A DNA stretch of 64,000 nt from Alphaproteobacteria bacterium. GTDB lineage: Bacteria > Pseudomonadota > Alphaproteobacteria > Rs-D84. This document shows positions 5,241 through 59,258 of the stretch, one piece after another. Made by a program: the position numbers and the translations under genes. The notes under the pieces were generated by a model, which saw nothing but the letters and a program-made list of their open reading frames with translations, did no database searches and was not told the origin of the DNA. The stretch covers positions 68,414-132,413 of the forward strand of contig JAFXPG010000014.1 in assembly GCA_017528045.1 (NCBI GenBank), in the 5' to 3' direction. Position 1 is the stretch's first letter. Each line of letters opens with the position of its first letter.

Positions 5241-5741
5241 ATGAAACGTATGTTTTTGGCATCGGGTATTGTGGTATGTATGACATGCCCTGCATTCGCA
5301 ACAGACCCAACTGGATTTGATTTGTCGACATTAGATGTCGGCATCAATGGAACAACATATGGATTTATAAGGGGTAATGGCAATGCCAGCTATGGCAATT
5401 ATTCACCAACCCAATATGATTTAACTGAATCTGGCACATGGGGCACGACATTTGATTATGGTAAAGTGCGTGGTGAAGCGTTGTGCAGCAGTACAAGTGG
5501 AACATATGCACAACCAAGCACGCCGGATGAAAACATAACTGGAAGATATTGTTGGTGTAAAGTGACGGGTTATCAAGCATCTGGTGGATCCAAATGGCAA
5601 AATGTTTCGTCTGTGTCCTGGGTGTTCGGCTTCGACCACGAGATTGCAGACATTTGTCCGGACGGCTGTGCATTCTATTGCGCGGACTACGTCCAGAATG
5701 ATTCCGTATTTCGGAATTCGATGTTCGGCGTGTCGCAATAA
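5241..5741 (+). CDS. secreted Cys-rich hypothetical protein
   Basis: Signal peptide MKRMFLASGIVVCMTCPAFA and multiple Cys residues. Divergent from virB8. Confidence 0.5.
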   Translation: MKRMFLASGIVVCMTCPAFATDPTGFDLSTLDVGINGTTYGFIRGNGNASYGNYSPTQYDLTESGTWGTTFDYGKVRGEALCSSTSGTYAQPSTPDENITGRYCWCKVTGYQASGGSKWQNVSSVSWVFGFDHEIADICPDGCAFYCADYVQNDSVFRNSMFGVSQ

Positions 5742-51925: not shown

Positions 51926-52322
51926 TTATGAAATAGGATATGCTCGCCCACCAAAATCAACACGGTTTAAACCAGGTCAATCGGGCAACCCAAAGGGGCG
52001 TAAAAAGGGTTCTATGAATCTTGATACGATTTTGATGAAGGCTTTGGATGCAAAAATAACCGTTGAAACACCAGCCGGTACAAAGCGTATTACTAAAAAA
52101 GAAGCGATAGCTATGAGATTGGTAAACAAAGCGGCTATGGGCGATCCTAAATCAATACAAACACTGTTGCCTTGGATGTCTAAAGTAGAAGAACGCAACA
52201 AATTAATCGCGCAAAAGTTAGAAGATGTAACCGAACAAGATGATATGATAATAAAAGGTTTTATAGATGGTATCAGGACGAATAATGCCGCAACGTCAAC
52301 TGCAAGCAATATTGCGGAATAA
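51918..52322 (+). CDS. DUF5681-like protein (putative small terminase)
   Basis: RPPKSTRFKPGQSGNPKGRKKGS motif. Sits immediately upstream of, and overlaps, the large terminase. Confidence 0.6.
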   Translation: MSDYEIGYARPPKSTRFKPGQSGNPKGRKKGSMNLDTILMKALDAKITVETPAGTKRITKKEAIAMRLVNKAAMGDPKSIQTLLPWMSKVEERNKLIAQKLEDVTEQDDMIIKGFIDGIRTNNAATSTASNIAE

Positions 52323-53739
52323 CTTTAAAAGTTTTGTTATCAAGGTATTTCAAACAGTATCGAATGATACATACCTTGATAACTGGCATATAGACGTTGT
52401 GTGTAATGAAATAGAACAAATGATATCTGGTGAAAATACAAGATTGATTGTTAATTTGCCACCACGTAATATGAAATCCATTATTTGCTCTGTTGCATTA
52501 CCTGCGTATTTGTTGGGTAAAAATCCGCACGAACAGATAGTGTGTGTAAGTTATTCTGATGATTTGTCATCACAACTAGCAAACCAATTTAAAATGGTTA
52601 TAGAATCACAGTGGTATAAAGATTTATTCCCAGCGGTTATATTAAAAACACGTGGTTTGGATATGCTGCGCACAAGCGTTGGCGGTTATCGCTTTGCAAC
52701 ATCTATTTGTGGCCCATTAACAGGATTTGGTGGTAATTGGATAATAATTGATGATCCTTTAAAGGCTGGTGACGGTTTTTCTGATACGGTTCGTGAAAAA
52801 GTAAACGACTGGTATACAAATACTTTGTATTCACGATTGAATAATAAAAATACTGGTCGCATATTGGTTGTTATGCAACGTTTGCATGAAATGGATTTAA
52901 CAGGATATTTATTATCCAAATCACTTGGCTTCAAATAAATTCGCATACCAATTATTGCGGAAGAAAATGAAGATTGGTCTTTTACTGATAAATTCAATTG
53001 TGAACATCATATAAACAGACAAAAAAACGATTTATTGCATCCTGCACGTGAAAACTTTGATGCTGTCACCAGTATGCGTAATATGATGGGTGAATTTGCC
53101 TTTGCTGGTCAATACCAACAAAGGCCGGTGCCATTAGAGGGAGGTATTGTTAAACGTGGTTGGATACGTTATTATCAAAATTTACCAAGGATTTGGACTA
53201 TAGCTATTTCTTGGGATACAGCGGCAAAGGCTGGCTCAAAAAATGCGTATTCTGCATGTTCTGTACTTGGCATATGTGATGGTGACAAACCAGGTAAATA
53301 CAATAGAAAGATTGTGTTGTTGGAAGTTCACAGAATGAAATTGGAATTTCCACAATTGATGGAAAAAATAATTGAAATGTCCAATGAAATTCAAAACAAA
53401 TACCAGAAAATGTTCAATATGAAATTTATGCGTGTAGAAACAGTAATAGAAGACGCATCATCTGGGACACAGATTATACAATTTTTACATTCCAAGGGAA
53501 TACGCATAGAAGGAATCAAACCAGAAAACGATAAAGAAACCAGATTGATAGGAATTACACATCTTTTGGAAAATGGCACAGTATTATTACCAAACCAACA
53601 AGATGGTGAAACGGTGGACTTTTTCGATGAATTGTTTAAATTCCCGAATTCCACATTCAAAGATATGGTTGATTCATTCTCACAAGGTGTCAGATATATG
53701 GACGACAAATATGTTTCCGGATGTAAAGGGTATTTTTAA
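52285..53739 (+). pseudogene. phage terminase large subunit interrupted by a single in-frame TAA at 52936-52938
   Basis: Track ORFs 52267-52938 and 53035-53739 are in the same frame. The gap translates cleanly (IRIPIIAEENEDWSF...). Walker B-like WIIIDDPLK and LHEMDLTGYL are present. Confidence 0.75.
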
Positions 53740-53741
53740 CG

Positions 53742-54467
53742 TTAAAATGGATATTCGCCATTTGCCCATTTGCAAGGATTGAAGTCCGCTATACCAGTGA
53801 CATATTTATCACACTGATCATAAAAACCATAAGTAATTCTAATATATTCACTTGACGAAAGAGTTTGTTTGTTCTTTTCTACATATTCATAAACAGCATT
53901 ATCTGATGCAGGTGTGCCATTGAACACACACGCTAAACATTCACACATTTTTTGAATATAATTCTGGTTTAGTTGAACACGACCGTTTTGCATATTATAT
54001 TCACATCTATTAAAAAATTGATTTTTTAATTTTTTTCGTATTTCGGGATTTTGTTTTGCTATTTTTGTTATTTTTGCTGTTTCTTCCTTTTCTTTTTGTG
54101 CAGCAACTTTTTTCCTTTTATCTATTTGATATTCATCGAATACTTTTGTGTTAACAACATGTATTGTTTTGTCGACAGAAATCTTATTTCCAGCTTTATC
54201 TGCAAAATACGAACCACCGAATCTTCCGCGGTTATCAGTGTCAAAAAACTTTTTATTTATTACAGCATAATCCGTAAATTCAGCGAACTCGTCTTTTGAA
54301 TAAGAATTTGTTTTTTTCATAATATCATCAGAAACACAGAAATAATCACCCTTAGAGATATTATAATTTTTTAAGCTATTATCATTAATTTTTCCACACC
54401 TATATGGGAAAGGTTCACTGGCCACACACGCAGCTAATATAAGTAGAAATAATAATCTTTTTTTCAT
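53742..54467 (-). CDS. putative lipoprotein, unknown function
   Basis: Lipobox-like LILAAC within the signal peptide. Cys-rich. Confidence 0.5.
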   Translation of the reverse strand: MKKRLLFLLILAACVASEPFPYRCGKINDNSLKNYNISKGDYFCVSDDIMKKTNSYSKDEFAEFTDYAVINKKFFDTDNRGRFGGSYFADKAGNKISVDKTIHVVNTKVFDEYQIDKRKKVAAQKEKEETAKITKIAKQNPEIRKKLKNQFFNRCEYNMQNGRVQLNQNYIQKMCECLACVFNGTPASDNAVYEYVEKNKQTLSSSEYIRITYGFYDQCDKYVTGIADFNPCKWANGEYPF

Positions 54468-54553
54468 ATTTATTCTTTTTTTAGATATTCATAATCCATC
54501 TTTGGTGGTATTAATATGATGTTGTAAAGATCCCACAGGCATTTGGTTTCATG

Positions 54554-54730
54554 TTATGATTGTTTTGATGTCTTCTCAATTTTTTCTATTATTAAACCTG
54601 CACATAAAAATAAAGTTGCCATTATTCCCCATAAACACGCATATATTTGTCCTGTAATATATTGTGCACTGAAAAGACTGCTAAAGAATTCTATTCCGCA
54701 TATAACGCATAATATTGCACATATCCACAT
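54554..54730 (-). CDS. small two-TM membrane protein (58 aa)
   Basis: Hand-translated MWICAILCVICGIEFFSSLFSAQYITGQIYACLWGIMATLFLCAGLIIEKIEKTSKQS. AAGGAGAG RBS 6 nt upstream. Below the track cut-off. Confidence 0.45.
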   Translation of the reverse strand: MWICAILCVICGIEFFSSLFSAQYITGQIYACLWGIMATLFLCAGLIIEKIEKTSKQS

Positions 54731-54751
54731 TTTTCTCTCCTTTTATTTTTT

Positions 54752-54974
54752 AACAAAAAGTTAACCGCCAAAGAAATTGGCGGCCGGGGAGTTCTCAAAT
54801 CATTTGTTCGTTGATTCCGTGGCTTTCGGTTTTTACCTGTTTTATAACCAACAGCTCCCCGACCATAAGTCAGGGATGATAACGGTGCAAAAGACACCGA
54901 TAACATCAGATTACGATGCTTCCGCACCGGAACAAATAGGCTTGAGATAGCCCCGAACCCAATCCCTTGGATTC
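54752..54974 (-). ncRNA. structured GC-rich leader or sRNA with its own promoter and an intrinsic terminator; class unknown
   Basis: Minus-strand promoter: TTGATT (55009-55004), 17-nt spacer, TATTAT (54986-54981). Multi-hairpin fold: GGGAT...ATCCC closes three hairpins, plus a long-range CGGGGAG...CTCCCCG helix. Terminator CCGCCAA-AGAAA-TTGGCGG (54765-54783) followed by a T-run on the minus strand. Confidence 0.45.
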
Positions 54975-55013
54975 ACTAGAATAATACATTAAAATATGAT
55001 AATAATCAAGTTA

Positions 55014-55241
55014 TTAAGGTTTTTGGGATAGTTGCTTTTTCCATAAAGCCGCCATTTGTAACAATTTATAATTAATACGTTTAATAAGCCATGCTTGGCG
55101 ACAAGTTAAATTGCCATCATTGGTCCTGCGGATTGCGGCTTCTAATTCCCGCAAAGAACGGCATGCAGCAAAGTAGAGCATAATAAAATCTGTTTTGTTA
55201 CTGGGCTTGATATCATCAAAATGCTTATACTTCATAGACAA
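55014..55241 (-). CDS. hypothetical protein (75 aa)
   Basis: ORF only. No family recognised. Confidence 0.35.
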   Translation of the reverse strand: MSMKYKHFDDIKPSNKTDFIMLYFAACRSLRELEAAIRRTNDGNLTCRQAWLIKRINYKLLQMAALWKKQLSQKP

Positions 55242-55347
55242 TCCTTTTTAAGATTGTCGTATTGATGATTATATTCCCGCGAAAGTCCAGTTATTTTATT
55301 TATTTTTTGAGTAAATCTCAGCAATTAATAATCATTGTTAAAAATAC

Positions 55348-55400: not shown

Positions 55401-56606
55401 ATGAAAGAAACCAAACCTAAAAGTCTTTTTTTGTGGCCAAGAGAAATGTTCGCGCCACCAAGTTTATTTAAGCACTATGTATATTTGGGTGAGATGGCTG
55501 GGGTCGCCAAAAAATACTCTGATGTTGATATTATAGACCTAAGCTTGCAGAATATATCCAGGCAAGAATTCGTATCCAGGTTATCAGATAGAGATTTTGT
55601 GTTTATACCGGTTGAAGTATACACTGCTAGGTCAATTGTAAATTTGGTAGAATACGTAAGGAATCAAACAAAAGCAAAGATTATTGGGTATAGTACGGCT
55701 TGCGCTTTAAATCCTGGATTATTTACCAATTATTTTGATTATGTTGTTGCATCTGGTTTTAGGGGAAACGCAATAAAAGCTATATTACAGGGCGATTTTT
55801 CGGATTTTTCAATTGATGGCAACATCATAAAAACAAAGCAAAAACCGTCTAATATCGAATGGGGCATTGCACCATTAAATCAAATGCCTGTGCAAGAATA
55901 TTTAAAGATTTCAAACAATGAAGTGGAATTGAGTGTACAAATGGGATGCAAAGCGAACTGTGCCTTTTGCATGGAAAAAATATTTCATCCGGCAAGTTTT
56001 GTAGAGTATCGTCCAATACCAGAGATTGTTAAGTTTTTTGAAACAAATATTTATGACAGGTATTTTTTAGATGCTACCACTTTTACTATAGATAAAAAAT
56101 GGGTGTTAAATTTATGCGATGCTATCAGGACAGCAAGTGTACCCAATATACCCAAGTGGCGTACTGTTACTCGTGTAGACTGTTTAGATGAAGAATTATG
56201 TACAGCCATGTCTTCTGCTGGATGCTACCAAATTGGCCTTGGCATAGAATCATTATCGCCAAATGTTCAAAAAAATGTTCATAAAGTTATCCAAGAACAA
56301 AAGATTATTCAAGTGTTTGATATGTTGAAACGCAATAATATTCAACCTCGCGGTTTCTTTATTTTGGGTCTGCCTGGTCAAGCAAAAGAAGATGTTGATT
56401 ACTGTTTGTCTTTCATAAAAGATAATAATATTCCATGTCGTTGGAAGGAATACTTGCCTCTTCATAACGTAAAAACGTTTAATGATATTGCGCAACTTAA
56501 ACCGTTTGAAAAAGATTCTTTCTTTTTCCACCCAGTGGCAAACATGTCCAAAGAAGACTATTTGAAAGTATTATTGAAAGATACCAGGTATACAAGGAGC
56601 AAATAA
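55401..56606 (+). CDS. radical SAM enzyme with an N-terminal B12-binding-like domain (class B-like)
   Basis: Roughly 170-aa Rossmann-like N-domain followed by SVQMGCKANCAFCMEK (CxxxCxxC). Confidence 0.75.
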   Translation: MKETKPKSLFLWPREMFAPPSLFKHYVYLGEMAGVAKKYSDVDIIDLSLQNISRQEFVSRLSDRDFVFIPVEVYTARSIVNLVEYVRNQTKAKIIGYSTACALNPGLFTNYFDYVVASGFRGNAIKAILQGDFSDFSIDGNIIKTKQKPSNIEWGIAPLNQMPVQEYLKISNNEVELSVQMGCKANCAFCMEKIFHPASFVEYRPIPEIVKFFETNIYDRYFLDATTFTIDKKWVLNLCDAIRTASVPNIPKWRTVTRVDCLDEELCTAMSSAGCYQIGLGIESLSPNVQKNVHKVIQEQKIIQVFDMLKRNNIQPRGFFILGLPGQAKEDVDYCLSFIKDNNIPCRWKEYLPLHNVKTFNDIAQLKPFEKDSFFFHPVANMSKEDYLKVLLKDTRYTRSK

Positions 56607-56607
56607 A

Positions 56608-57678
56608 ATGATTGGCCGTGTTTTAGAAACAAAAAAAATGAAAACATTTATTTTTATCAAAGTTGGCAATGCCAATGAGGTTGTGTGTGGTCAAATAGAT
56701 AAAAGTTTAGAACCAAGGCCCCATACCAGTGATATTGTTAAATTTGATATAGAAAATGATCCAGATGAAATATTGCCACATTTTGTAAACATGGATGTGT
56801 TAGAAAGATGCAATGCGCCTGAGATTGTTAACCCAGATATGATACAAATATCATTATATAAAAGTAAATTTGAACAAATTGCTGATGCACATTTCTCTAA
56901 AATAGGCGCAATAAAAGTTCATACACCAACATTAGGTAGATACAAAGGGACTTCGAATATAGATCCTTATGAAACCCAGAATAAAAAAGGTAAAACATTA
57001 TATTTAAAATTTACACACGATTTGTTATTACGCTCGGTTTTGGCAGATGTATTAGTACCTGTATATGAAATAGGAAATGTTTTCAGAAATATGGGGATTT
57101 CGTATAAATATGCCACAGAATACACAATGTTGGAATCTCATATACCGTGCCAGGATCTACAGTATGGTATAAATTTGGCACAAACAATTTTGCAAGATTT
57201 TGCGCATTCAATTGGAAAAAATGATTTTGATAATCTGCCTGTTAAAACATTACAACAATCTTTTTCTGAATTTGGTAAAGATCTTGCCAATATGCCTGAT
57301 TCAGAACAAGTTGATTTTTATAAAGACAAAATTAAACCGTCTGGCACCTTTATTTCCGTTTATCAACCAGCAATTGCGAGTCCATTGGCTAAAATAGATC
57401 CAAAAACCAACTTGGGACTTGATGCAGAGATAATATATAACGGTAAAGGGATTGCACATATATATGTTTGTGAAAATAATTATGATAAACTGCTAAAAAT
57501 CTTCAAAAATCAAGACAAGACTCAACAAAGATGGGATAAGGATTTTTTATTAAAAGCCAAAGCTGGCATTCCTTCAACTGTCGGTGTTGCAATAGGATTG
57601 GACAGAACTATAGCCGGATTATTTGGGGTTACCGTCAATGATTTAGTTATGAGAGGCAAATTATCAAATGAACGATGA
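56608..57678 (+). CDS. class IIb aminoacyl-tRNA synthetase paralogue (LysRS/EpmA-like), divergent
   Basis: Short OB-like N-domain (GRVLETKKMKTFIFIKVGNANEVVCGQI). Motif 1 (KVHTPTL), motif 2 (VYEIGNVFRNMGISYKYATEYTMLESH), SPLAK, motif 3 (GVAIGLDRTIAGLFG). Starts 1 nt after the upstream stop. Confidence 0.8.
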   Translation: MIGRVLETKKMKTFIFIKVGNANEVVCGQIDKSLEPRPHTSDIVKFDIENDPDEILPHFVNMDVLERCNAPEIVNPDMIQISLYKSKFEQIADAHFSKIGAIKVHTPTLGRYKGTSNIDPYETQNKKGKTLYLKFTHDLLLRSVLADVLVPVYEIGNVFRNMGISYKYATEYTMLESHIPCQDLQYGINLAQTILQDFAHSIGKNDFDNLPVKTLQQSFSEFGKDLANMPDSEQVDFYKDKIKPSGTFISVYQPAIASPLAKIDPKTNLGLDAEIIYNGKGIAHIYVCENNYDKLLKIFKNQDKTQQRWDKDFLLKAKAGIPSTVGVAIGLDRTIAGLFGVTVNDLVMRGKLSNER

Positions 57679-58753
57679 AATCAAAACGATAGAATTTTTA
57701 AAAACTGGCTTATCGTTGCAGACTCATATTGGCTGTCCAATAAAGTGTTCTTATTGTGTTGTTACTGGTTTTTATGATGATATGGTCAAAACCCAACAAC
57801 TCGTAGATACGGATACACTGATAAATAACTTAATAAAACATGAATTTTTTAATGACGATGTTATCTTGATGGTGAACAATAAAACAGAAGGTTTTCAACC
57901 AAAGGTTGAAAAATATACTTTTGATATTTTGGATAAACTTAAGAATTATGGAATAAAAAATCCAAAAGTATTGATAACGAAACTTCCGATACCGCTAAGA
58001 TATACAGAATCTTTGACTGATAATAATGTTTTTGTGTTTACAACATATTCTGGCATGCCCGCGTCTATAGAACCAACATCAAACCCAACAAATTTGTCTA
58101 ATATTATAAACAATATCAAAACATTAAGACAGCATTCTGATGTAAGACATGTACATTATTGGCGTCCTATTGTTAGAAATATAAACAGCAGTTCTGATAT
58201 TATTGATAACATATTAGGAAATGTAAACGATGTATTTGATTGTTCTGTTGTATCTGGTATCCGTTTAACACCGGTTATTAAACAGCACCTAGAAAGCCGA
58301 GGGGCAGATTTTTATGATTGGAATGGTGATATTAATCATAAATTTTTACCAGACGATATTTATGATCAAATTATACAATCAAGGAACAAATTATGTCCTG
58401 AATATAAGTTGTTTACAAAGACCAGTTGTTCTATCAGTCATTTATTGGATAGTTTTGATGCGAATTTGAATTTTGTAAAAAGAAATTATAAGTGCTCTGT
58501 TCAATGTCCAAATGGGTCAATATGTAAATCGTACCAGCCACAATATACAGAGAAAGAACGCGAAATATTAAAAAAGTTCGATTTATTGGATTATGCACAT
58601 TTTACAGATGGGGTTTTATACATAAATAAGCCGATTTCCCAAGAATTAAAAGCATTTCTTACTCAAACAATAAAATTAAGAATAATTGTTCCAGAAACAC
58701 TAAAATCTTATACCGAAGGTATTTTCAATGCACGAAATGGGCGTTCTTTGTGA
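57668..58753 (+). CDS. radical SAM enzyme (second, different type)
   Basis: LQTHIGCPIKCSYCVV CxxxCxxC near the N-terminus and a C-terminal Cys cluster (CSVQCPNGSICKS). Overlaps the upstream gene by 11 nt. Confidence 0.7.
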   Translation: MNDEIKTIEFLKTGLSLQTHIGCPIKCSYCVVTGFYDDMVKTQQLVDTDTLINNLIKHEFFNDDVILMVNNKTEGFQPKVEKYTFDILDKLKNYGIKNPKVLITKLPIPLRYTESLTDNNVFVFTTYSGMPASIEPTSNPTNLSNIINNIKTLRQHSDVRHVHYWRPIVRNINSSSDIIDNILGNVNDVFDCSVVSGIRLTPVIKQHLESRGADFYDWNGDINHKFLPDDIYDQIIQSRNKLCPEYKLFTKTSCSISHLLDSFDANLNFVKRNYKCSVQCPNGSICKSYQPQYTEKEREILKKFDLLDYAHFTDGVLYINKPISQELKAFLTQTIKLRIIVPETLKSYTEGIFNARNGRSL

Positions 58754-59258
58754 TTTTCATGGTACTTTGGTAGATGCTAATCATGCATGGATCAAAGCTT
58801 TTGAAACTTATGATATTCCTGATATAAATCAGGTGATTACAGATGTGTATCATAAAGTAAATCGAAAAATAATATGTAATAAGTATGGTATAAATTATGA
58901 AGAAATAAAAAATAAATACATATATTTTTTGGAGGTTCGTTATGAAATAGTTAATCTTGTTAAATTATTAAGTGGCAATACAGGAATAATAATAGTTTCG
59001 AATTCTAGCAGAGAACGTTTGCTCAGGGACATAGATTTTGTAAAACCAAATTTAGATTTGAATATACTGGAAATATTATCCAAAGAAAACGGCAACAAAA
59101 ACGATCCAGATTATATAAATCAGGTGCTAGACAGATATAATTACAGGTCTGCATATTTAGTAGGAAATGACATCAGAGAAGACTTCAACCCATCATTGCG
59201 TATAACAAATATATTTGTCCCATATAAAAATACTATACTTATGAATAAAACCCTATAA
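58728..59258 (+). CDS. HAD-superfamily protein with an atypical motif I (DFHGT)
   Basis: VLCDFHGTLVD, IIIVSNSS, and LVGNDIREDF. Overlaps the upstream gene by 26 nt. Confidence 0.55.
   Translation: MHEMGVLCDFHGTLVDANHAWIKAFETYDIPDINQVITDVYHKVNRKIICNKYGINYEEIKNKYIYFLEVRYEIVNLVKLLSGNTGIIIVSNSSRERLLRDIDFVKPNLDLNILEILSKENGNKNDPDYINQVLDRYNYRSAYLVGNDIREDFNPSLRITNIFVPYKNTILMNKTL

Follow-up and report, generated by a model that had tools for sequence, protein, structure and literature searches.

A predicted riboswitch-like attenuator RNA before accessory genes of Rs-D84 Alphaproteobacteria, and its relationship to sRNA-Xcc1

The structured leader RNA element described here is encoded on the minus strand of a 64,000-nucleotide (nt) stretch of DNA from an Alphaproteobacteria bacterium of the Rs-D84 lineage (assembly GCA_017528045.1, contig JAFXPG010000014.1); this whole stretch is called the window below. 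The RNA is about 215 nt long and is predicted, with moderate confidence, to be a cis-acting, riboswitch-like transcription attenuator that serves as a leader for accessory genes of Rs-D84. This reading is favoured by the fixed, co-directional spacing of the gene behind 143 of 145 copies, by the placement of promoter and terminator, and by the alternative folds of the RNA. A first-pass annotation, made from the bare sequence, had noted a promoter-driven structured RNA with a terminator at this place; the observation is largely right, and its by-eye fold is partly wrong.

Conservation, structure and layout of the leader RNA

Homologues were collected by two pattern scans. The first, of species-representative genomes, returned 68 loci, about 55 of which are full-length homologues (57–219 bits with nhmmer), the remainder being chance matches in high-GC taxa. 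The second, of metagenome contigs, added 114 further loci. In all, the element is present in 169 loci, nhmmer-detected and full-length. The hosts are gut and rumen Alphaproteobacteria of the order Rs-D84, those of the first scan being gut metagenome-assembled genomes labelled 'Candidatus Enterousia', Alphaproteobacteria or Rickettsiales; two records labelled Bacteroides fragilis and Gastranaerophilales are probably mis-binned. Rs-D84, or "Candidatus Enterousia", comprises uncultured gut symbionts whose genomes measure approximately 0.75–1.0 Mb (PMC12306168). Some contigs carry multiple copies (e.g., three on one 347-kb contig), and no second copy was found within the window by blastn, profile nhmmer or the covariance model R1 introduced below. 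The RNA element forms a unit by itself and is widespread: contigs from gut and rumen metagenomes align to approximately 54763–54976 only, with a depth far above that of the flanks, and then diverge on both sides. Neither the region, compared with phage and plasmid collections by similarity search, nor a 20-nt pattern from the 5' hairpin, scanned against viral contigs, gave a match.

The structure of this RNA is under selection. Covariation analysis of nhmmer-collected homologues, which the first-pass annotation had proposed, was carried out on alignment A2, made of 140 non-redundant sequences. Standard pairs fill 95–96% of the cells, versus 85% in column shuffles and 31–50% in slid controls, and 43–44 pairs are changed on both sides, the observed values being reached by none of 500 shuffles. 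The window RNA also has a predicted minimum free energy of −91.2 kcal/mol (z = −6.6; none of 200 shuffles folded equally well), in line with the structured RNA first proposed. Its GC content was initially described as far higher than that of the surroundings; the rise is real and modest only, from 0.25–0.35 to 0.40–0.43 over 54700–54999.

Covariation backs about a dozen helices, two loop-to-strand pseudoknots and three GNRA tetraloops (Table 1). P1 is 96–98% paired, with both sides changed in 5 of its 7–8 pairs, and is capped by GAGA, GGGA or GAAA depending on the homologue; pairing in P2 reaches 94.7%, with both-side changes in 4/5 pairs. PK1, formed by the P2 loop (index 30–34) and nucleotides 180–184, is 95.9% paired and shows 73–80 double changes per variable pair. 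Double changes affect every pair of P3 (40–47/168–175), where each of the four Watson-Crick pair types is frequent. As P3 uses the P10 loop and PK1 the P2 loop, these two loop-to-strand pseudoknots tie the halves of the RNA together with approximate two-fold symmetry. In the 3' half, double changes affect 7/7 pairs of P8 and 3/3 pairs of P9, and P10 is 91% paired.

The core (index 48–94), whose palindromic character is shown by reverse-strand self-matches, can form P4 (CGGUGC-GAAA-GCAUCG, 100% paired) and P6 (CGGUG-U-rich loop-CACCG, 99.3% paired). An alternative core pairing, 48–53/89–94, is also 100% paired and as possible as P4/P6; these segments being near-invariant, covariation does not choose between P4 plus P6 and 48–53/89–94 plus 59–63/69–73. 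G-U pairs are frequent (for example, G50-U61 in 139/140 and U105-G117 in 110/140 sequences) and, being strand-specific, point to an RNA of the minus strand. Of the junction and the long-range helix drawn by eye in the first-pass annotation, the CGGGGAG/CUCCCCG helix holds, with 99.0% pairing over the 140 sequences and compensatory changes; it corresponds to P7alt. The GGGAU/AUCCC junction does not, being paired in 64% of cells with one pair failing in 88/140 sequences, and its GGGA is the GNRA tetraloop of P1. A 78-amino-acid (aa) open reading frame (ORF) overlapping the RNA (54691–54927) was rejected as a gene by inspection: the alignments show frequent indels, and conservation tracks base pairs, not codons.

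The minus-strand TTGATT-17-TATTAT promoter described earlier lies at 55009..54981. Hexamers resembling −35 and −10 boxes occupy the same columns before 54/54 homologues inspected, 7–8 nt upstream of a conserved GAAUC, and the sequence around them is otherwise unrelated among these homologues; the conservation border of the element is the predicted transcription start. At the other end, a terminator scan identified the hairpin GGCCGCCAA-UUUCU-UUGGCGGUU at 54785..54763, followed by a U-run. Its 9-pair stem with 5 GC pairs, then AACUUUUUGU, has the GC-rich stem-loop and U-run of an intrinsic terminator. In the family, the stem is 92–95% paired with 4–5 pairs changed on both sides, and at least six U occur in the 10 nt past it in 128/140 homologues. 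As first described, this terminator (54785..54752) abuts the long-range helix, which indeed shares its base.

What follows the terminator is equally regular. The downstream sequence was long enough in 145 elements; in 143 of them, a same-strand ORF (at least 50 aa) starts within 100 nt of the terminator stem, at a median of 25 nt (interquartile range 21–28), with a ribosome-binding site (RBS) in between. This spacing leaves no room for a separate promoter. Upstream neighbours are of mixed orientation, and downstream neighbours are almost always co-directional. The leader or attenuator layout recognized at the outset is thus conserved across the family, and alternative pairings touch the terminator base.

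Table 1. Parts of the leader RNA and the two genes behind it in the window. Index 1 is the G at 54976; coordinate = 54977 − index.
Feature	Window position	Strand	Index	Remarks
Sigma-70-type promoter	54981..55009	−		−35 TTGATT 55009–55004, 17-nt spacer, −10 TATTAT 54986–54981; consensus scan
Whole RNA	54752..54976	−		Inferred start to end of U-run; from contig match borders, nhmmer homologues and fold z-score
P1 hairpin	54955..54974	−	3–10/15–22	Capped by GNRA tetraloop GGGA
P2 hairpin	54938..54953	−	24–28/35–39	Loop 30–34 = UCUCA
P3, 5' strand	54930..54937	−	40–47	Partner: P10 loop, 168–175
Quasi-palindromic conserved core	54883..54929	−	48–94	Contains P4 and P6
P7 local hairpin	54856..54876	−	101–108/114–121	UCCCUGAC-UUAUG-GUCGGGGA; holds the G-rich strand
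sRNA-Xcc1-like 3' domain	54782..54864	−	113–195	P7alt, P8, P9, P10, PK1 3' strand
P7alt closing helix		−	114–122/186–194	GUCGGGGAG with CUCCCCGGC; 3' domain
P8		−	123–130/154–160	Internal loop UAUAAAACA; inside P7alt
P9		−	140–142/147–149	GNRA loop; inside P7alt
P10		−	162–165/175–178	Inside P7alt
PK1, 3' strand		−	180–184	Inside P7alt
Intrinsic terminator	54752..54785	−	192–214 (stem)	Stem 54785–54763, then U-rich tail AACUUUUUGUU
RBS and 58-aa ORF with two transmembrane segments	RBS 54740–54735; ORF 54730..54554	−		RBS GGAGAG; first cargo gene at the window copy, outside the conserved element
241-aa lipoprotein gene	53742..54467	−		Second cargo gene; lipobox LAAC; signal sequence MKKRLLFLLILAAC

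Mutually exclusive helices and the predicted attenuator

Several of the conserved helices compete for the same nucleotides. P7 (97.0% paired; pair 106:116 is found as GC, GU and AU) and P7alt (6/9 pairs changed on both sides) are mutually exclusive, as both require the G-rich strand 114–121. A further helix, P0, pairs the GGG(G) of the P2 5' strand (23–26) with CCCC at 188–191; it is 96.4% paired and competes with P2 for nucleotides 24–26. The C-rich strand thus has two conserved partners, one in P7alt and one in P0. On a rough neighbour-joining tree, pair 23:191 of P0 switched between GC and AU in about 14 inferred events, and pair 121:187 of P7alt from AU to UA in 4–5; copies that have acquired a U at position 121 show no compensating change at 101, its partner in P7. 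In three copies (L110, L152 and the second copy of L015), substitutions are compensated in several competing helices at once. Finally, P7alt shares nucleotides 192–194 (2–3 basal pairs) with the terminator stem, both helices being conserved. The family is a well-supported case of an RNA with two conserved, mutually exclusive folds and multi-way compensatory changes, and a good candidate for ligand hunting and structural work.

These pairings can be assembled into fold A (P0, P7 and the whole terminator) and fold B (P2 and P7alt), and the following mechanism is proposed. A constitutive-looking sigma-70 promoter would start transcription at about 54976, producing a leader of ~215 nt able to take either fold. 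In fold A, GUCGGGGAG (114–122) would be kept in P7 by UCCCUGAC (101–108), and CUCCCC (186–191) would pair with GGGG (23–26); the terminator (192–214) would be complete, halting transcription ~25 nt before the start codon. In fold B, P2 would be formed with both pseudoknots in place (P2 loop with 180–184, P10 loop with 40–47), and GUCGGGGAG would pair with CUCCCCGRC as P7alt, yielding the sRNA-Xcc1-like 3' domain. Nucleotides 192–194 would then be taken from the terminator base next to the U-run, and RNA polymerase would read into the gene. The balance would be set by a signal, be it a small molecule, an ion, a protein or an RNA, for which the core 48–122, invariant in sequence, is the probable reader. 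We infer the existence of such a signal, a lowering of termination by fold B and a functional role for the two folds as alternatives.

Several points weigh against this reading. The overlap between P7alt and the terminator, of only 2–3 nt, is below that of most riboswitch expression platforms. The two folds of the window RNA are of similar computed stability (−75.6 kcal/mol for fold A versus roughly −70.5 kcal/mol for fold B), which speaks for the reading, but the fold B value is obtained by simply adding two pseudoknot helices and ignores pseudoknot penalties; the switch counts carry the roughness of the tree. Part of the invariance is due to ascertainment, since the scan of species-representative genomes fixed the P6/P7 sequence and that of metagenomes P4/P6. 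The RNA data consist only of assembled contigs. Those of three metatranscriptomes contain homologues, but some of them extend past the predicted start on its upstream side and could include DNA; in one study, the contigs of three metatranscriptomes hold no homologue, and others hold fragments. The downstream genes, falling into 84 clusters, have no common function, unlike metabolite riboswitch regulons.

Relationship to sRNA-Xcc1 and rival explanations

At the element, the Rfam scan also proposed in the first-pass annotation brought no family to threshold: with Rfam 15, only three tRNAs in the window reach it, and nothing relevant appears at E ≤ 10 over 54400–55300 (riboswitches, 6S, SRP, tmRNA, C4/IsrK and HEARO being among the families covered). 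In 20 related loci, the only recurrent matches are tRNAs and below-threshold hits to the small RNA (sRNA) family sRNA-Xcc1 (RF02221). These concern the 3' half, with 45.3 bits in L142 and 44.8 bits in L083 for a cutoff of 53 (E ~6e-6 and 9e-6 on a rescan of three loci) and 33–35 bits in three further relatives; bona fide members score 69–73 bits in the same tool. The window copy itself gives no match to this model at E ≤ 10, short of the curated gathering score of 53 bits. The relatives nevertheless align full-length to the Rfam consensus, and P7alt, P8, P9 and P10 are backed by covariation in the 140 sequences. As it fails the curated score and shares the fold, the RNA is classed as an extended, two-domain variant of the sRNA-Xcc1 kind. 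The initial remark that it could not be matched to a riboswitch class stands as far as Rfam thresholds go; what it missed is this relative of the 3' half.

The two RNAs have in common a 9–10 bp GC-rich closing helix (GGYCGGGRG/CYCCCGRCC, P7alt here), a helix with an internal loop (AUACAAUA in the Rfam consensus, UAUAAAAYA here), and then, in the same order, a short GNRA-capped hairpin, GAA(A), a second hairpin and a U-rich linker. Both are multi-copy and lie in mobile or accessory DNA, which for sRNA-Xcc1 means integron cassettes of Xanthomonas campestris and, for the relatives of that RNA, plasmids, prophages and genomic islands; both also directly precede a same-strand gene (symE, ORF6N or BRO protein genes for sRNA-Xcc1). 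Unlike sRNA-Xcc1, the window family has a 5' domain of 113 nt preceded by a promoter, a distinct hairpin for termination, two half-joining pseudoknots and rival partners for both strands of the closing helix. The conserved-position promoter lies 113 nt upstream of the closing helix, whereas the sRNA-Xcc1 transcript (~88 nt) begins at that helix. An internal promoter proposed by eye before the Xcc1-like domain (TTGCAC-17-TATGGT) was dropped because its start would fall past the 5' strand of the closing helix.

A covariance model of the 3' domain of the window family (R1) gives the window 3' domain (index 113–195) 92.8 bits. It recovers one of three bona fide sRNA-Xcc1 members from plasmids (L184, 28.6 bits, E ~9e-4; not L183 or L185), and an R1 search of 706 kb of related loci found no 3' domain without its 5' domain. 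One homologue, at 882–1078 of L044, has an internal deletion joining model positions 3–125 directly to 178–223, so that most of the Xcc1-like domain is gone; its contig is binned as Gastranaerophilales, probably in error.

sRNA-Xcc1 was described in X. campestris as an 88-nt RNA seen on Northern blots, with its ends mapped (PMC2996969). Published copies precede symE in an integron cassette (bioRxiv 10.1101/2025.06.18.660453) and, in APSE phages, an ORF6N gene; Xylella has seven copies, and in a Xylella genome it adjoins C4 and IsrK RNAs (PMC12189769). Two bona fide plasmid copies precede a BRO family gene (P. aeruginosa NZ_CP093017.1, L184 1498–1618) and a hypothetical-protein gene (N. vulgaris NZ_CP116247.1, L185 1482–1618). 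They score 70–73 bits, with the same-strand gene starting ~40–50 nt further on. Over 11 nt in L184 (CCUCUGCUUGG/CCAAGCAGAGG) and 8 nt in L185 (CUUUGUGA/UCACAAAG), the second-hairpin loop is complementary to this gene's RBS region, which suggests, as far as such complementarity goes, that these copies may control translation in cis, either instead of acting in trans or in addition to it. The equivalent loop of the window family pairs instead with the upstream strand 40–47, not with the RBS. Pairing of the P10 loop or the PK1 strand with the RBS region downstream of the same copy was considered and set aside, complementarity being no better than to that of other members. The third bona fide copy lies in the N. 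gonorrhoeae record NZ_CP119140.1 (L183), at 1485–1570 (68.8 bits, above threshold), with a weak match 140 nt downstream (1710–1780, 33.9 bits); this 2.17-Mb record is labelled plasmid, yet is chromosome-sized.

Known switches offer a partial parallel. The c-di-GMP-I and c-di-AMP classes are transcription-terminating riboswitches with broad regulons. The window family resembles them in its complex fold with pseudoknots and tetraloops, its mutually exclusive helices, its terminator directly before an ORF, its many copies per genome and its varied downstream genes, surface proteins included. It differs from them in that no Rfam riboswitch model matches, the antiterminator overlap is only 2–3 nt, and the gene set is even less coherent. 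More generally, a covarying structured domain directly upstream of an ORF is what a riboswitch presents; the coherent gene set that usually accompanies one is missing, as the 145 downstream proteins fall into 84 unrelated clusters.

The live rivals are a stand-alone sRNA and a processed regulator of the C4/CI type. It is unlikely that the RNA is a stand-alone, trans-acting sRNA of ~215 nt, efficiently terminated and directing its single-stranded CUCCCC, as an anti-Shine-Dalgarno seed, at other mRNAs, with the gene that follows as a mere neighbour or expressed by leak-through. Such an sRNA would suit the element's own promoter, its good terminator with at least six U in 128/140 homologues, the likeness of its 3' half to a Northern-detected RNA and its several copies per genome, comparable to the seven in Xylella. 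It leaves unexplained the 143/145 co-directional genes located 21–28 nt past the terminator without room for a promoter and the conservation of both C-rich-strand pairings, and no target has been identified. The ~220-nt sRNA offered as an option in the first-pass annotation is possible to that extent, the fixed gene spacing being what it does not account for. The stand-alone and attenuator roles can also coexist.

A leader-derived RNA of the immunity type, like P4 CI or P1/P7 C4, is improbable. Here, the Xcc1-like 3' domain would be cut out of the leader and would pair with nascent leaders of the same element via P3, PK1 and the G-rich strand, causing premature termination, which is the outcome brought about by the leader-derived P4 CI, P1/P7 C4 and IsrK RNAs. 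In phage P4, the seqB/seqA/seqC arrangement makes one strand complementary to two others; GUCGGGGAG, complementary to both an upstream and a downstream strand, matches it, and, like P4 CI, C4 (RF01695) and IsrK, the window RNA leads a mobile-element operon. The mobile-element setting points the same way (convergent terminase in 12 loci, serine recombinase in 10), as does the adjacency of sRNA-Xcc1 to C4 and IsrK in Xylella. P3 and PK1 are, moreover, hypervariable and differ between the same-genome copies compared (L007/L040, two each in L009 and L015, L077/L096), but free variation is normal for the structural helices of any folded RNA. Unlike the immunity RNAs, the window family shows no sign of processing and no sequence or structure match to them (in Rfam, none to C4 or IsrK), and its downstream genes are diverse cargo, not antirepressor or replication genes. 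Most improbable is a DNA-level element, for instance an operator or a site for recombination or cassette capture of the integron attC type, conserved for its DNA or single-stranded DNA structure. Sharp borders, very diverse flanking genes, the quasi-palindromic core 48–94 and the presence of sRNA-Xcc1 within integron cassettes would fit such a site. They are outweighed by strand-specific G-U pairs, which are C-A mismatches on the other strand, by GNRA tetraloops, pseudoknots, a positionally conserved promoter and a terminator with U-run, and by the fixed orientation and start-codon spacing; no integron integrase was seen in the neighbourhoods examined.

The attenuator reading is further supported by the bona fide sRNA-Xcc1 relatives, which likewise sit 40–50 nt before same-strand genes. 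A wider proposal can be put forward only tentatively: the family may be a riboswitch-like sensor class gating horizontally acquired cargo genes (surface, defence-like) in reduced-genome gut symbionts, with the widespread sRNA-Xcc1 RNAs of integrons, plasmids and prophages as its minimal form. If true, the whole superfamily would be a portable promoter-leader switch for mobile gene cassettes, not a set of trans-acting sRNAs. In genomes of ~0.75–1.0 Mb, a multi-copy RNA switch placed ahead of many accessory genes could constitute an important layer of control. The family also offers a testable reading of sRNA-Xcc1. Annotations of this RNA exist for many pathogens, plasmids and prophages, and it is regarded as a virulence sRNA acting in trans; where it lies, and the complementarity between its loop and the RBS, rather suggest a leader acting in cis.

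Cargo genes and genomic neighbourhood

About 60% of the 84 downstream clusters have signal-peptide, lipoprotein or transmembrane features according to a simple heuristic; others are, judged by eye, DNA methylase-like or DUF262-like, or are of no assigned kind. In the window, the RBS, the 58-aa ORF and the lipoprotein gene are present as first annotated. The suggestion that the RNA serves this 58-aa ORF as a toxin or holin-like peptide did not hold: none of the other 145 downstream proteins clusters with it, and in L040, the closest relative, its place is taken by a 399-aa gene, in keeping with the diversity of cargo throughout the family. The 241-aa lipoprotein has no Pfam match, and its gene ends 2 nt from a convergent, broken terminase gene. 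The start of the lipoprotein gene (54445–54483, RBS and first signal-peptide codons) is met by itself, at 80–90% identity, in many metagenome contigs that are otherwise unrelated, and may be a shared signal-peptide or expression module.

No general partner protein was found among the neighbours, the most frequent being the c1 small protein (17/169 loci), terminase (12/169) and serine recombinase (10/169). The c1 family, encoded upstream of the RNA, is represented by 75 aa at 55014–55241 (minus strand) in the window and by 158 aa at 5290–5766 of L002. It has no Pfam match, and the C-terminal part of the long form matches phrog_1933. The first 39 nt of the 75-aa gene (55210–55248) also recur alone in many metagenome contigs.

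The window appears to be a low-GC bacterial chromosome, judging from an ORF pair the size of rpoB/rpoC and three tRNA genes. Near the RNA lies a degraded prophage-like stretch encoding a ParB-methylase and a DUF5681 protein. Its terminase large subunit is split into two plus-strand ORFs, one for the ATPase (52267–52938) and one for the nuclease (53035–53739), which are ~96 nt apart and convergent with the RNA. In relatives, an intact 481-aa terminase gene occupies the same convergent position. With no portal or capsid genes after the split terminase, the stretch looks like a decayed prophage or a satellite-like element. Among 20 related loci scanned, five have tRNA genes ~0.3–1.5 kb from the element (L088 31–103, L120 44–116, L126 1055–1125, L109 458–531 and L069 143–226), which fits mobile DNA inserting beside tRNA genes. 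On the other side of the RNA, a tight plus-strand operon (55401–59258) encodes a radical SAM protein of 401 aa and a class II aminoacyl-tRNA-synthetase-like protein of 356 aa (tRNA-synt_2), followed by two more ORFs, of 361 and 176 aa, whose starts overlap; it may be an amino-acid or peptide modification cluster.

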